A stretch of 64,000 bases of DNA from Candidatus Rariloculaceae bacterium (GTDB lineage Bacteria; Pseudomonadota; Gammaproteobacteria; Steroidobacterales; Rariloculaceae), in the NCBI GenBank assembly GCA_045561055.1, contig JBJKYL010000010.1:198681-262680 (forward strand), in the 5' to 3' direction. The notes beneath the pieces were generated by a model. It did no database searches and was not told where the DNA came from. It saw nothing but the letters and a program-made list of their open reading frames with translations. Within the stretch, counting starts at the first letter, position 1. Every line of letters begins with the position of its first letter. Shown here piece after piece: positions 53,481 through 64,000 of this stretch. A program made the position numbers and the translations under genes.

Positions 53481-53503
53481 CGACAAAGTTGAGCGGTAAA
53501 AGT

Positions 53504-53576
53504 GGGGGCCAGGGTCGGAAATCTATTATCCGATATTACCCAAAATTTCTATTGTGCCGGGTGGTACCCGGCCCCC
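53504..53576. other. GC-clamped long hairpin / possible bidirectional terminator between convergent genes
   Basis: GGGGGCC-A-GGGT at 53504-53515 can pair with ACCC-GGCCCCC at 53566-53576. An inner perfect hairpin GCCGGGT-GGT-ACCCGGC lies at 53557-53573. There is a short T-run only on the minus strand (ACTTTTAC). Confidence 0.25.
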
Positions 53577-53653
53577 AAAAATGCCTCCCGGCGAGGCGGC
53601 GGTCACAACAAGGCGGGGGGAAGATCGCCTGGTGACAGCCTAACAACGGGCCG

Positions 53654-53944
53654 CTAACCGCGATTGTTTGTAAGCGCGCTCGCCAGCCTTAACGGCGGCG
53701 TTACCGACTGTTTCAAATCGAATTCCAGGTCCGCTTTGAAGCGAAGCTCGACAGTTTTCGTAAACAGGTCCATGTTGTTACGAAAGCGCGCATTTTCTGC
53801 GTGTGCTTCTGCTGTAGTCTGAGCACCGGTCACGATGACTTCTTCAGTAGCTGCCATTGGAGCGTTAATCACGCACAGGGTGACTATCGCAAGCGATATC
53901 CTGAGACCGGTTGAAGTATTTTTTCTAGATGCCTGGTTAATCAT
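53654..53944 (-). CDS. small secreted hypothetical protein, sigma-54-dependent target
   Basis: The ORF is 96 aa from ATG 53944, with AAGGA 8 nt upstream. The tracked ORF begins at TTG 53986. The signal peptide is LRISLAIVTLCVINAPMAA|TEE, and the rest is amphipathic helical. I recognised no family. Confidence 0.5.
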   Translation of the reverse strand: MINQASRKNTSTGLRISLAIVTLCVINAPMAATEEVIVTGAQTTAEAHAENARFRNNMDLFTKTVELRFKADLEFDLKQSVTPPLRLASALTNNRG

Positions 53945-54016
53945 GGCCTTAGTCCTTGATGTCCAATATTTCGGAAAAACAGTCAATTTTAAAATTACGT
54001 CTTTTGCTTTTATTAA

Positions 54017-54033
54017 TGCAGGAGTCGTGCCAA
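54017..54033 (-). promoter_or_regulatory. sigma-54 (-24/-12) promoter
   Basis: The minus strand reads TTGGCACGACTCCTGCAT. Against the consensus YTGGCACGrNNNTTGCW, the GG and GC elements are at exact spacing and there is a single T-to-C mismatch. It lies about 70 nt upstream of ATG 53944 and is divergent from a sigma-54 activator gene. Confidence 0.72.
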
Positions 54034-54076
54034 CTTATTAAATCAATAAAAACAGTATGTTATAGTTTATTAATGT

Positions 54077-54130
54077 AACGGAATTCCGTTAAAACACGGA
54101 ATATCGTTGATATAAATAGCGGATATCCGT
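54077..54130. promoter_or_regulatory. three related inverted repeats (CGGA-N2-4-TCCG), candidate enhancer (UAS) sites
   Basis: The repeats are AACGGAATTCCGTT (54077-54090, a perfect 14-bp palindrome), ACGGAATATCGT (54096-54107, imperfect) and GCGGATATCCGT (54119-54130, with a 10-bp perfect core). They lie 45-110 bp upstream of the -24 element and just upstream of the activator ATG. Confidence 0.5.
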
Positions 54131-54141
54131 AAACTTATGTC

Positions 54142-55944
54142 ATGTCTAGTAATGATCGCTATCAGTGGCTGTTTCGTAAGGGTCCGGCGTTATCGCTGTC
54201 GCTTAATGAGGAGGGTCACATTCTCGATGCCAGCGATGCTTGGTTAACGCGTTTCGGTTATGGCCGTCCCGAACTCAGTCAGCTCCGGTCTCGGGATATC
54301 ATTAATCAAGAATCGGCACGACGAATCATTGAGGACTACATGCCGTTATTGCGCCGCGCGGGTCGACTGACGGACGTCCCGGTAGATCTCGTAACGAAGG
54401 CGGGTAAAACTGTTGCTTGTCTCGCCAATGCGGTCGCTGAATCCGAGCCGGAAGGTGGTGACGGCATGCGCACGGTTGCAATTTACACGGAGTTGGAGGA
54501 TGAGCGGAGCGTTGGGCAGCACTATCAGGATCTCTACAAGGATACGCCGGCGATGCTTCATGCTGTGGATAGTGGGGGACGCATTGTGTACGTCAGTGAT
54601 CACTGGCTCAAAAAGCTCGGTTACCGTCGTGAGGAAGTAATTGGGCGCAGTATTATCGACTTTATGGCTGGAGAGTCGCGGGATGACATGGATGAAGGGT
54701 CGCTAGTCAACATAATTGCACAGGGAGAGCTTGATAACGCACCGCGGAATTATCTGACACGAGAGGGCGAGGTCATCGAGGCGCTAGTGTCAGCTCGAGC
54801 GGATCGCGACGAAAACGGCGAGGTTACTGGTCTTTATGTGGCCTTGAAAGACGTTACGGAGCGTAATCGTGCTGAACGGCAACTGCGTGCCGCGTTTGAG
54901 GAAAACGCGCGTCTGAGGCAGGAACTGGAGCAGGAGCGCGATTACCTTCGCGAGGAGGTCGAGGTATCAATGAATTTCGGCCGCATTATCGGCGAGAGTC
55001 CAGCGCTGAAGAAAATGTTGGCCCGCCTCGAAGCTGTTGCGCAGACAGCGGCCAACGTATTGATACAAGGGGAATCCGGCACCGGTAAAGAACTTGTTGC
55101 TCACGTGGTCCATTCACGAAGCGCCCGGGCCGACGGCCCGCTAGTAAAGGTTAACTGTGCCTCGATCCCCCATGAATTGTTCGAAAGTGAGTTCTTCGGT
55201 CATGTAAAAGGCGCATTCACAAGTGCTCACAGGGATCGGATCGGGCGTTTCCAACTGGCTGACGGTGGAACGATATTTCTGGATGAAATCGGCGAAATCC
55301 CGCTCGATCTTCAGGGAAAACTTCTACGCGTCCTGCAGGAGAGCGAATATGAACGTGTCGGGGATGACGCGACGCTATCCGTCGATGTAAGGGTGATAGC
55401 AGCAACGAACCGTAATCTTGAAAAAGCCGTTGATCAGGGCGGCTTTCGCGAGGATCTATACTATCGCCTCAGCGTGTTCCCTATCGACGTCCCGCCGCTG
55501 CGGGAGCGTGGCGACGATATTATTCAGCTCGCCAGTCACTTTCTTGAGAAGGCCTATCTGGATTTTGGTCACCGGCCCCTGGCCCTTTCCCGTCAGCAGG
55601 CAGGACTGCTCAATAAATACGACTGGCCCGGTAATGTTCGTGAACTCAAGAACGTCGTAGAGCGGGCTGTAATACTTTCCCAGGGGAAGGTGCTTAGGCT
55701 CGATCTCGCAATGGCGGATATATTGCGGTCGTCGCCGTCGCTTAACAGTAAGTCGGAGGGGTCGCTGAGCCACGTAATGACGGAACGGGAGTTTGTCGCA
55801 TTGCAGAAAGAAAATATGCAGGTCGCTTTAGGTTTGAGTAATGGAAGGGTCTCTGGTTCTCGAGGTGCGGCGAAGCTTCTCGGGCTGAAACCCTCGACCT
55901 TTACAGACCGGATGCGAAAACTCGGCGTGAGCAAGCCACGCTAG
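54142..55944 (+). CDS. sigma-54-dependent transcriptional activator (PAS-PAS-AAA+-HTH, no receiver domain)
   Basis: The ORF is 600 aa with two PAS-like modules and a coiled linker. The AAA+ core has Walker A GESGTGKE, the GAFTGA-loop variant GAFTSA, Walker B FLDEIGE and the ESEYERVGD block. The C-terminus is a Fis-type HTH ([21 protein letters not shown]). Confidence 0.9.
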
Positions 55945-56116
55945 TGCTGTTCGAAGACAGCGGAATTGTCCCGAGACTAAACTCTGCTTTGTGTAAACCA
56001 TAACTCTATATCTTCGGAGGGGTTGTGGTTAGTCCCTATAATCTGATATATGTTTGCCCACTACAGTATTAATTTCTTAGCCATCTACTAGCAAAAATAA
56101 TTAAAAAGACGACTGT

Positions 56117-56476
56117 ATGACCTATCTTGTTGATCGTTTTCAGGCTGCGGTGTCTGTACTCGTGGCCGAAGGATCTGTTAAGGATCGCCTAGCCACCGCT
56201 TACTCGGAACATCTAGGTGATTTGGAAATCAGCGAATTGCCTCAGAACTTGCAGGAGAAGTTTAAAACTCTTGATTCTGCGCTTCATTCTGTGAAGCCGA
56301 TTGGAAAAGAACTTTGTGTTAGGGCTTCGGTCCGAAAGATGTCTAGGCTGCAAGCGGGTGACCATGCCAGGACCATTTTTACGCTTTACGTATCCCTTAT
56401 CAGTCGGAGTAATCGTGCCGCGCCACTCAAGGCAGTTGACGGTAAGTACAAGAAATCGACGCGACTCGCCTCTTAG
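56117..56476 (+). CDS. hypothetical cytoplasmic protein
   Basis: The 119-aa ORF is predicted helical with no signal peptide and no recognised motif. Coding status rests only on ORF length and position. Confidence 0.4.
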   Translation: MTYLVDRFQAAVSVLVAEGSVKDRLATAYSEHLGDLEISELPQNLQEKFKTLDSALHSVKPIGKELCVRASVRKMSRLQAGDHARTIFTLYVSLISRSNRAAPLKAVDGKYKKSTRLAS

Positions 56477-63508: not shown

Positions 63509-64000
63509 TTAAGGTAGATAATGGAAGGTAAAGTTTCGCGCCAGTCCGCGCGCCCACACGATTTCTCCATCGACCATTCGTGGCCGGAAGCGAGACCGAC
63601 CGAGCGCTCGTACTGTGGAGACATCTTTAAGTCCTGGTGGAACGGATTCGACCACAGCCACATTTCGGGTTCTCCCCCTTTCGTCGACGTCGAACGTCAC
63701 CAATACTTTTCCGGGCAAGACACCCGGCTCGTCCGGGTCACTTAGACCGCGATTACTTGGGTTTTCGCGAAACACATAGCGCGGGTTTTCGAACCACCGG
63801 CTTTGTATTTCATCACTATCCTCGAGCTCGTCTAGTAGGGCCCATGCTTGACGGTATTCTTCACCGGTTCCGCCGTTGATGCTGAATGCAGTATTCCAGT
63901 CACCGATATCAATGAGAAGCTCGGCGAGAATTCGTGGATTCGTATCGGCTTGATCCTGGGCGATTTCTAACGCCTGGCGAAGCGCCGAGACCCCGCGCCC
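63509..64000 (-). CDS. paralogous TPR/TonB-C-like protein (partial, 5' end beyond window)
   Basis: I translated the frame by hand and it stays open from 63775 up to the window edge (...ALRQALEIAQDQADTNPRILAELLIDIGDW...). The C-terminus is VLVTFDVDERGRTRNVAVVESVPPGL...RPRMVDGE. The tracked ORF shows only the last 88 aa from an internal GTG. Confidence 0.55.
   Translation of the reverse strand, partial: GRGVSALRQALEIAQDQADTNPRILAELLIDIGDWNTAFSINGGTGEEYRQAWALLDELEDSDEIQSRWFENPRYVFRENPSNRGLSDPDEPGVLPGKVLVTFDVDERGRTRNVAVVESVPPGLKDVSTVRALGRSRFRPRMVDGEIVWARGLARNFTFHYLP

Follow-up and report, generated by a model that had tools for sequence, protein, structure and literature searches.

A predicted sigma-54 switch in Candidatus Rariloculaceae with a small exported protein and a structured 3' RNA as its proposed output

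We describe a compact regulatory cassette in a 64,000-nucleotide stretch of DNA from a Candidatus Rariloculaceae bacterium (contig JBJKYL010000010.1, positions 198,681 to 262,680; the whole stretch is referred to as the window). The cassette consists of two divergent genes: a plus-strand gene for a sigma-54 enhancer-binding protein, and a minus-strand open reading frame (ORF) for a tiny protein that is predicted to be exported. Three palindromes and a -24/-12 promoter lie between them, and a conserved, structured region follows the stop codon of the small ORF. From sequence and comparison, we regard the locus as probably a dedicated one-component sigma-54 switch, the output of which is an exported protein together with a structured 3' RNA. 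No description of this cassette was found in the literature, in a search that was limited in coverage. Gammaproteobacteria related to Woeseia occur widely in marine sediments, and how they regulate their genes has hardly been studied.

The genome of the window's organism comprises 2.36 Mb in 19 contigs and is 98% complete. Comparisons draw on two samples: 22 genomes of the window's GTDB family, labeled Candidatus Rariloculaceae or Rariloculus at NCBI, and 201 genomes of the marine bacterial order containing Woeseia, from which 16 loci of other families were inspected. Genome-wide counts of intergenic -24/-12 promoters and of receptor motifs use crude ORF calls.

Layout and conservation of the locus

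The features of the cassette are listed in Table 1. The sigma-54 promoter differs by a single mismatch from TGGCACG-N4-TTGCW, a pattern with 2 matches in the window against 0.43 expected. It is the only intergenic -24/-12 match (at most one mismatch) with a downstream gene in the whole genome, and TTGGCA(C/T)G-N4-NTGCA is kept in 7 relatives, all 16 order loci, and most loci of the family. The palindromes are similarly singular: site 1 is the sole perfect ACGGAWWTCCGT in the genome, and the locus holds the sole three-palindrome cluster. Across the window, CGGAWWTCCG (at most one mismatch) is not enriched, with 10 matches against 9.7 expected. Palindrome centers lie 18 and 23 bp apart in the window; among loci, sites 1 and 2 are 17-18 bp apart, and sites 2 and 3 are 22-23 bp apart in almost all cases. 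The core of site 3, ACGGAT(A/T)TCCG, is almost invariant in the 7 relatives, and its end is separated by 11 nt from the activator ATG (54142). Other palindrome pairs in the genome (C2:329463, C2:82996, C5:256151, and C13:24909) look coding on reading, with no -24/-12 box nearby, and the genome-wide palindrome and -24/-12 scans gave no second target.

Table 1. Positions of the cassette's features in the window
Feature	Position	Strand	Basis or remark
Sigma-54 promoter, TTGGCACGACTCCTGCAT	54016..54033	minus	GG 54031-54030, GC 54019-54018; predicted start near 54006
Candidate enhancer site 1, AACGGAATTCCGTT	54077-54090	unstranded	kept in 7 relatives and in family and order loci
Candidate enhancer site 2, ACGGAATATCGT	54096-54107	unstranded	kept in 7 relatives and in family and order loci
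Candidate enhancer site 3, GCGGATATCCGT	54119-54130	unstranded	type ACG-N6-CGT; position retained in family and order loci
AT-rich spacer with conserved TTGTTTTTA / TTGATTT block	54034..54076	unstranded	candidate integration host factor (IHF) or bending site
5' leader, ~62 nt	53945..54006	minus	predicted start to small ORF
96-residue ORF, predicted exported protein	53654..53944	minus	homologs, alignments, codon-position bias
TEEVIVTG codons, TonB-box-like motif	53825..53848	minus	predicted mature N-terminus
Hairpin H1, C-rich apical loop AUCUUCCCCCC at 53615-53625	53598..53640	minus	per-sequence comparison, 23 family sequences
Hairpin H2, GCCUCGCCGGGAGGC, then U5	53583..53597	minus	terminator-like match; sequence unique in genome
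Domain P3, long-range stem GGGGGCCGGG (53567-53576) / CCUGGCCCCC (53504-53513), then U-run	53496..53576	minus	probable intrinsic terminator
Sigma-54 enhancer-binding protein, 600 residues	54142..55944	plus	Pfam, NCBIfam
Activator's sigma-70-like promoter, TTGATA-17 nt-TAAACT	54107..54135	plus	consensus scan

In the 7 close relatives the intergenic region has diverged, yet the three sites, the promoter, the AT-rich block, a leader element, and the Shine-Dalgarno sequence are retained. The IHF consensus, WATCAANNNNTTR, is matched on reading by some relatives and only partially in the window; ihfA is encoded in the genome. The leader element is palindrome-like (CCGAAATATTGG at 53963-53974), with ATCGGAGTTTCGTAA or ACG-N6-CGT as its counterpart in relatives. 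An operator, a roadblock, or an RNA hairpin are conceivable roles for it, although none explains it so far, and the hairpin prediction is weak (one compensatory pair among 4 sequences). At two loci from other families (L039 and L053), the element just before the Shine-Dalgarno sequence is of the enhancer type, ACG-N6-CGT; in the window it is degenerate.

The gene pair is inherited as a unit. A six-frame profile search located the small gene in 19 of the 22 family genomes, and in all 19 it is divergent from and adjacent to an activator ortholog, with rearranged outer flanks. Two of the 3 remaining genomes have neither gene, and the third (1.2 Mb) has diverged copies of both. Sites, spacing, promoter, and Shine-Dalgarno sequence were footprinted in the 7 close relatives, in 9 family genera, and in the 16 other-family loci. 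Across the order, full-length activator orthologs (searched with the PAS-PAS part; 30-76% identity) are present in 85 of the 201 genomes. All 16 inspected loci share the layout almost to the base, including that of the cultured Woeseia oceani: the first palindrome lies 13-16 nt past the activator start codon, ACG-N6-CGT sites start at about +16, +38/39, and +55/56, an AT-rich TTGATTT block follows, and then TGGCAC-N5-TGC at +101 to +127 (farther out at one locus with an uncertain start codon). The leader is usually 45-80 nt long, and 15 of the 16 loci have a small ORF of 32-136 residues with a signal peptide or membrane anchor. In W. oceani XK5 this ORF is BA177_03000 (WP_156762671.1), annotated as a hypothetical protein.

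The activator is composed of two PAS domains (about residues 7-115, and 126-240), a coiled linker, an AAA+ sigma-54 interaction domain (282-448), a lid, and a predicted C-terminal helix-turn-helix (HTH) of the Fis type. Pfam and NCBIfam return PAS over two stretches, Sigma54_activat, and AAA_lid_14, and no receiver domain. PF00158 matches at E 5e-71, Walker A (GESGTGKE) and Walker B (FLDEIGE) motifs can be read in the sequence, and the matches in the PDB are AAA+ domains of NifA, NtrC, FleQ, and ZraR. Orthologs inside the genus-level group are 78-84% identical, and the C-terminal 40 residues are almost invariant. The genome encodes rpoN and only 2 full-scoring sigma-54 activator domains: that of the window and that of a second full-length activator, which is NtrC-like.

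The activator gene has a sigma-70-like promoter of its own. Its TAAACT -10 box directly follows site 3 and ends 6 nt before the ATG, leaving a Shine-Dalgarno sequence no room (window 54130-54144); of 34 loci, 16 have a TAnnnT hexamer at exactly this distance from the start codon, and in several others the distance is, by eye, 7-9 nt. Many orthologous loci likewise combine a -10-like box with the lack of a Shine-Dalgarno sequence. The mRNA is probably leaderless, given the position of the -10 box and the lack of a Shine-Dalgarno sequence. Sites 2 and 3 lie across this promoter's -35 box and spacer, and for this reason the activator may repress itself.

An initial annotation of this DNA, made from the letters alone, had read the locus as a self-contained sigma-54 module: a near-consensus minus-strand promoter, three palindromes adjoining the activator ATG, a divergent PAS-PAS activator without a receiver, and a 96-residue signal-peptide ORF of no known family. 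It had pointed to rpoN, to a genome scan for further palindromes and -24/-12 promoters, and to conservation of the small ORF next to orthologous activators as checks. The comparison above bears out this description in each of these respects, from the individual elements and their spacing in the family to the layout across the order. A fourth half-site, GCGGAATTGTCC at about 55960, after the activator gene, did not survive: it is absent from relatives and is therefore treated as chance. Beyond it, relatives share a conserved block, GGTTGCAG...CCCATAAT.TGGTATAT.TTTAC (window 56017-56060), upstream of a 119-residue orphan ORF (56117-56476). The block looks like the promoter of that ORF, which follows the activator in some family genera only.

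The small, predicted exported protein and the structured 3' RNA

The small ORF is a real gene, as judged by its pattern of conservation. Its 25 homologs share 53-96% identity, 24 of them have exactly 96 residues, and a profile search of 1.84 billion representative proteins returned 33 matches, almost all of about 90 residues. Most nucleotide differences from relatives are at third codon positions (in one example, 29/15/48 for the three positions), and AAGGA, a conserved Shine-Dalgarno sequence, lies at 53953-53957, 8 nt upstream of the ATG. In the predicted product, residues 1-32 form a signal peptide and residues 33-40 read TEEVIVTG; a long amphipathic helix follows, and the chain ends in Arg-Gly, a pair without variation across a 30-sequence alignment. 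AlphaFold2 models one helix over residues 5-81, with a mean predicted local distance difference test (pLDDT) score of 74 that is best at about residues 51-70. Invariant residues, third-position bias, and the conserved Shine-Dalgarno sequence argue for protein-level constraint on the ORF within each family. Neither Pfam nor NCBIfam gave a match to the ORF at E 0.01. In one genome, a second copy of the small gene, ending in TRG, lies away from the activator, at about 1501-1785 of locus L029 (G149:C2:2088214-2091495); it has its own TGGCACGCGGCGTGCA box (TGGCACG-N4-GTGCA) and no clear ACG-N6-CGT sites.

In the window, the approximately 160 nt beyond the stop codon occupy the convergent intergenic gap and fold into H1, H2, and P3, the last of which encloses two small hairpins within its stem. 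H1 is found in 22 of 23 family sequences, with stems of 11-15 bp in 18 of those 22. Its stem sequence varies by genus, with 3-5 pair types at each of the first nine pair positions, and its loop retains CUCCCCC-like runs. H2 has a conserved GCCGG loop on a stem with U-A to G-C swaps, and the P3 stem, in which G-C pairs change to A-U and C-G pairs to U-A, measures 10-12 bp in 18 of the 23 sequences. This covariation supports the fold; for H1 and P3 it was judged sequence by sequence, and an all-genera MAFFT/RNAalifold alignment did not line up H1. The genome contains a single copy of the element. At loci with a different downstream neighbor, even a non-convergent one, the element still accompanies the small ORF. 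C-rich-loop hairpins also lie 3' of the small ORF in most of the other families sampled, W. oceani included; a strict scan (at least 8 contiguous pairs, and C5 inside a loop of at most 16 nt) matched 11 of 38 module 3' regions, against 18 matches in the whole genome on both strands. Rfam gave no match on the 3' region at E up to 10, and only sub-threshold chance matches elsewhere.

These results alter the initial annotation's view of one tiny secreted protein as the promoter's product. A single short transcription unit is what the sequence predicts, but the protein is not its sole conserved product. It may be that the RNA is the main conserved output: a 3' untranslated region (UTR)-borne or dual-function small RNA that pairs with G-rich or Shine-Dalgarno regions, the ORF being a fast-evolving passenger or helper. 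The recurrence of the hairpins beside ORF products that lack detectable similarity between families would fit this account, as would the covariation of the H1 stem under a retained loop. Sigma-54-dependent RNAs (Qrr, GlmY, and CrcZ) provide precedents, and CcsR/cuckoo RNAs provide another, in the 3' UTR of a small ORF (PMC8034643). We hold this account to be possible but somewhat unlikely, given the clear protein-level constraint on the ORF within each family, the absence of an Rfam family match, and a scan for G runs near start codons that gave no target theme. That scan yielded six genes with G6 runs near their starts; their translations were read, no common theme emerged, and the candidates were dropped. 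A few genes with G6-7 runs in or just before ribosome-binding regions (C4:20065, C5:253613, C16:24856, and C11:404919) could conceivably pair with the C-rich loop, but they too showed no shared theme. At C11:190413, a 255-residue frame opens with about 21 consecutive G, possibly a slippage-prone tract or an assembly artefact.

Alternatively, the small exported protein could be the sole functional product, and the 3' structure a strong terminator shared by the convergent genes. The U-run after P3, the U5 after H2, and the way the region fills the convergent gap in the window are all to be expected of a terminator. Yet a terminator needs neither conserved loops nor linkage to an ORF, and this weakens the proposal: the C-rich loop is retained though the sequence of the H1 stem turns over completely, the H2 loop is conserved, and the element follows the ORF even without a convergent neighbor. 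We judge it unlikely, and retain the reading in which protein and RNA are both outputs of the switch.

The start of the mature protein offers a clue to its role. According to the -3/-1 rule, cleavage is predicted after ...MAA, placing TEEVIVTG at the head of the mature protein, and the family motif at this site is [TM]-E-E-[VIL]-x-V-x-G, followed by the long helix. The genome's 17 Plug-domain receptors have LEEVIVTA, LEEIVVTA, LEEVVVTG, and similar strands a few residues past their signal peptides. The pattern EE[IV][IV]VT[GA] occurs 9 times in 2,024 crude ORFs (701,075 residues): 8 times in Plug-domain receptors and once in the small protein. The number of matches expected by chance is roughly estimated at about 0.03. 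The small protein itself has no Plug match and no beta-barrel; it is predicted to form a single long helix. Comparable strands are found at the head of small proteins in other families (IDEIVVTAPR, twice in one family; ADEIVVTER; DLEVVAVMA; and MEEVTVVENRG), and the proteins that share them are otherwise without detectable relatedness. The genome encodes three TonB_C domains, one of which (33.5 bits) is located in the window, at 63524-63712 on the minus strand, inside a 484-residue frame about 9.5 kb from the cassette. The TonB C-terminal domain regarded as the candidate partner lies at C9:278949-279182.

Thus the protein remains without a known family, as first annotated, but it is not featureless: its N-terminus fits the genome's TonB-box consensus. 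We tentatively read this strand as a TonB box, a reading that we hold to be possible rather than probable. Another periplasmic partner, such as a TolA-type domain, a protease, or a PDZ protein, could instead use the strand as a signal for docking or processing, with Arg-Gly as a second tag. TolB docks on TolA via a similar N-terminal strand, and such a signal would be in keeping with a box Thr that varies in the family and an invariant Arg-Gly that is otherwise unexplained. We find this doubtful, since all other occurrences of the window's heptapeptide in this genome are in TonB-dependent receptors, where its place relative to the signal peptide is the same.

Proposed circuit and its weak points

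Every element above, and its conservation, is read from sequence and comparison; from these we infer binding, sigma-54 dependence, export, TonB contact, RNA function, and a sensed signal. In the proposed switch, the cytoplasmic PAS-PAS activator would bind, probably as dimers, to the three ACG-N6-CGT palindromes, the centers of which lie about 77, 95, and 118 bp upstream of the predicted start. A cytoplasmic signal would lead it to form an active AAA+ ring. The ring would then contact sigma-54 RNA polymerase at TTGGCACG-N4-CTGCA over the AT-rich, probably IHF-bent spacer, resulting in promoter opening. Through the same palindromes, which cover the -35 box and spacer of its sigma-70-type promoter, the activator may repress its own, probably leaderless mRNA.

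The switch would produce a single RNA, about 510 nt long, in which two parts are conserved. The protein part is predicted to be a Sec-exported helix, about 64 residues long when mature, with first residues that copy a TonB box and an Arg-Gly end. In the periplasm, it may dock on a TonB-type C-terminal domain and modulate TonB-dependent uptake, or may itself be acted on by TonB. In the 3' region, the C-rich loop could be the seed, directed against G-rich or Shine-Dalgarno sequences, of a regulatory RNA borne in the 3' UTR; alternatively, the region could govern 3'-end formation. A bolder version joins the two parts into an envelope-control circuit: PAS sensor and sigma-54 would produce a bifunctional RNA, the protein acting in the periplasm as an endogenous TonB-box decoy or adaptor to tune all TonB-dependent uptake, and the C-rich-loop RNA acting on G-rich ribosome-binding sites. 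This version is speculative, and we would not expect it to hold as a whole. If true, a single signal would reset outer-membrane transport at both the protein and the mRNA level.

Several observations weigh against these proposals. The L1 loop, with which the activator would contact sigma-54, reads GAFTSA (codons 55219-55236) and not the canonical GAFTGA. GAFTSA is fixed in 7 near-identical (98%) sequences from separate assemblies, the window included, whereas 110 other orthologs have GAFTGA; on this account, activity of the activator in the window's species is only predicted. HTH_8 falls below the reporting level (E 0.01) in the window's activator, with PF02954 precomputed for orthologs. The PAS ligand is not inferable, as the PDB search gave generic PAS matches only. 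On the side of the small protein, the Thr of the box varies in the family, where the motif is EE-[IVL]-x-V-x-G; AlphaFold2 renders the TEEVIVTG stretch as a low-confidence helix; and a TonB-like strand is missing from the W. oceani small protein. The module and TonB-dependent receptors were not seen to be lost together: genomes without the module retain 14-16 receptors, and the module is therefore dispensable for TonB function. It is because of the variable Thr, the W. oceani protein, and the receptors kept without the cassette that the TonB-box reading stays tentative. Homology between the small proteins of Rariloculaceae and Woeseiaceae is not claimed (hhalign probability 8%). Finally, the 3' hairpins could be an elaborate terminator and nothing more.

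A last alternative, that the palindromes only auto-repress the activator and the genome's NtrC-like activator fires the -24/-12 promoter, takes up the overlap of sites 2 and 3 with the activator's promoter and the existence of a second full-length activator; it is very improbable, because the sites keep a fixed distance from the sigma-54 promoter in every family, the gene pair is co-inherited and co-lost, and three sites at about -70 to -125 fit a classical enhancer (PMC2831303).

We return, then, to the dedicated switch. The cassette probably controls something important, since it is one of two full-scoring activator systems in a streamlined 2.36-Mb genome and is conserved across the order. 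Should the small protein dock on TonB, the cell would be making its own periplasmic TonB-box protein, a kind of protein of which a limited literature search found no description, and the docking would provide a direct handle on the throttling of energy-costly outer-membrane uptake. The C-rich-loop RNA would add a family of sigma-54-dependent, 3'-UTR-borne regulatory RNAs outside model organisms. The cultured host, W. oceani XK5, makes the cassette experimentally testable.

Comparison with known systems

Activators that each serve a single small envelope gene or a single RNA are familiar from ZraR-zraP, PspF-pspG, and LuxO-qrr1. The initial annotation had called a dedicated activator with a single small target unusual; this was overstated, and the three sites have a precedent in NorR-norVW (PMC2831303). 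In this system of Escherichia coli, three inverted-repeat enhancer sites lie at about -84 to -137, and IHF binds the spacer (PMC2831303). NorR resembles the window's activator in being a one-component protein with an N-terminal sensor and no receiver, a divergent target, and three inverted-repeat sites, and the NorR model gives the activator its best NCBIfam score (371 bits over the AAA+/HTH part, under the cut-off of 476). The two differ in sensor and sites, with an iron GAF sensor and GT-N7-AC sites in NorR as opposed to PAS-PAS and ACG-N6-CGT here. They also differ in target: NorR controls enzymes that detoxify nitric oxide, whereas the target here is predicted to be a tiny exported protein with a structured RNA. 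The predicted activation mechanism is textbook and closest to the NorR three-site enhancer (PMC2831303).

In ZraSR-zraP of E. coli and Salmonella, a sigma-54 promoter is divergent from the activator gene and serves one small helical periplasmic protein. The divergent layout and the single small helical periplasmic product are predicted to be the same here. ZraR, however, is a two-component response regulator, unlike the receiver-less activator of the window, and ZraP belongs to a CpxP/Spy-like family, for which the small protein has no Pfam or NCBIfam match at E 0.01. We know of no structured 3' RNA for zraP, and of no TonB-box tip on ZraP.

Short regulatory RNAs can be the targets of such activators as well. 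LuxO-qrr1 of Vibrio, GlrR-glmY, and CbrB-crcZ are systems in which an activator drives the sigma-54 promoter of a short regulatory RNA, and qrr1 is divergent from and adjoins luxO. Their activators are response regulators, and their RNAs are non-coding and of unrelated families, in contrast to the cassette.

The closest published parallel to the 3' region is found in the CcsR/cuckoo RNAs: the small DUF1127 gene ccaF1 of Rhodobacter sphaeroides carries these stable C-rich-loop hairpins in its 3' UTR (PMC8034643, PMC4615179). Both arrangements would have a small ORF co-transcribed with C-rich, anti-Shine-Dalgarno-like loop hairpins on its 3' side under an alternative sigma factor, for the cassette on the strength of its sequence. 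CcsR loops are CCUCCUCCC in four copies, whereas the CUCCCCC-like loop here is present in one. The promoter and product also differ: RpoHI/HII and a DUF1127 protein in Rhodobacter, compared with sigma-54, a dedicated activator, and a predicted exported, non-DUF1127 protein in the window.

TonB boxes are short acidic-hydrophobic strands near the N-terminus of TonB-dependent receptors, colicins, and pyocins (PMC11658791). The strand of the small protein is identical in pattern to those of the genome's own receptors, and differs in its carrier: the cell's own soluble, helical protein of about 64 residues, without a plug, barrel, or toxin domain. What is new in the cassette is its output, namely the combination of a tiny, predicted exported protein with a TonB-box-like tip and a 3' RNA with a C-rich loop.

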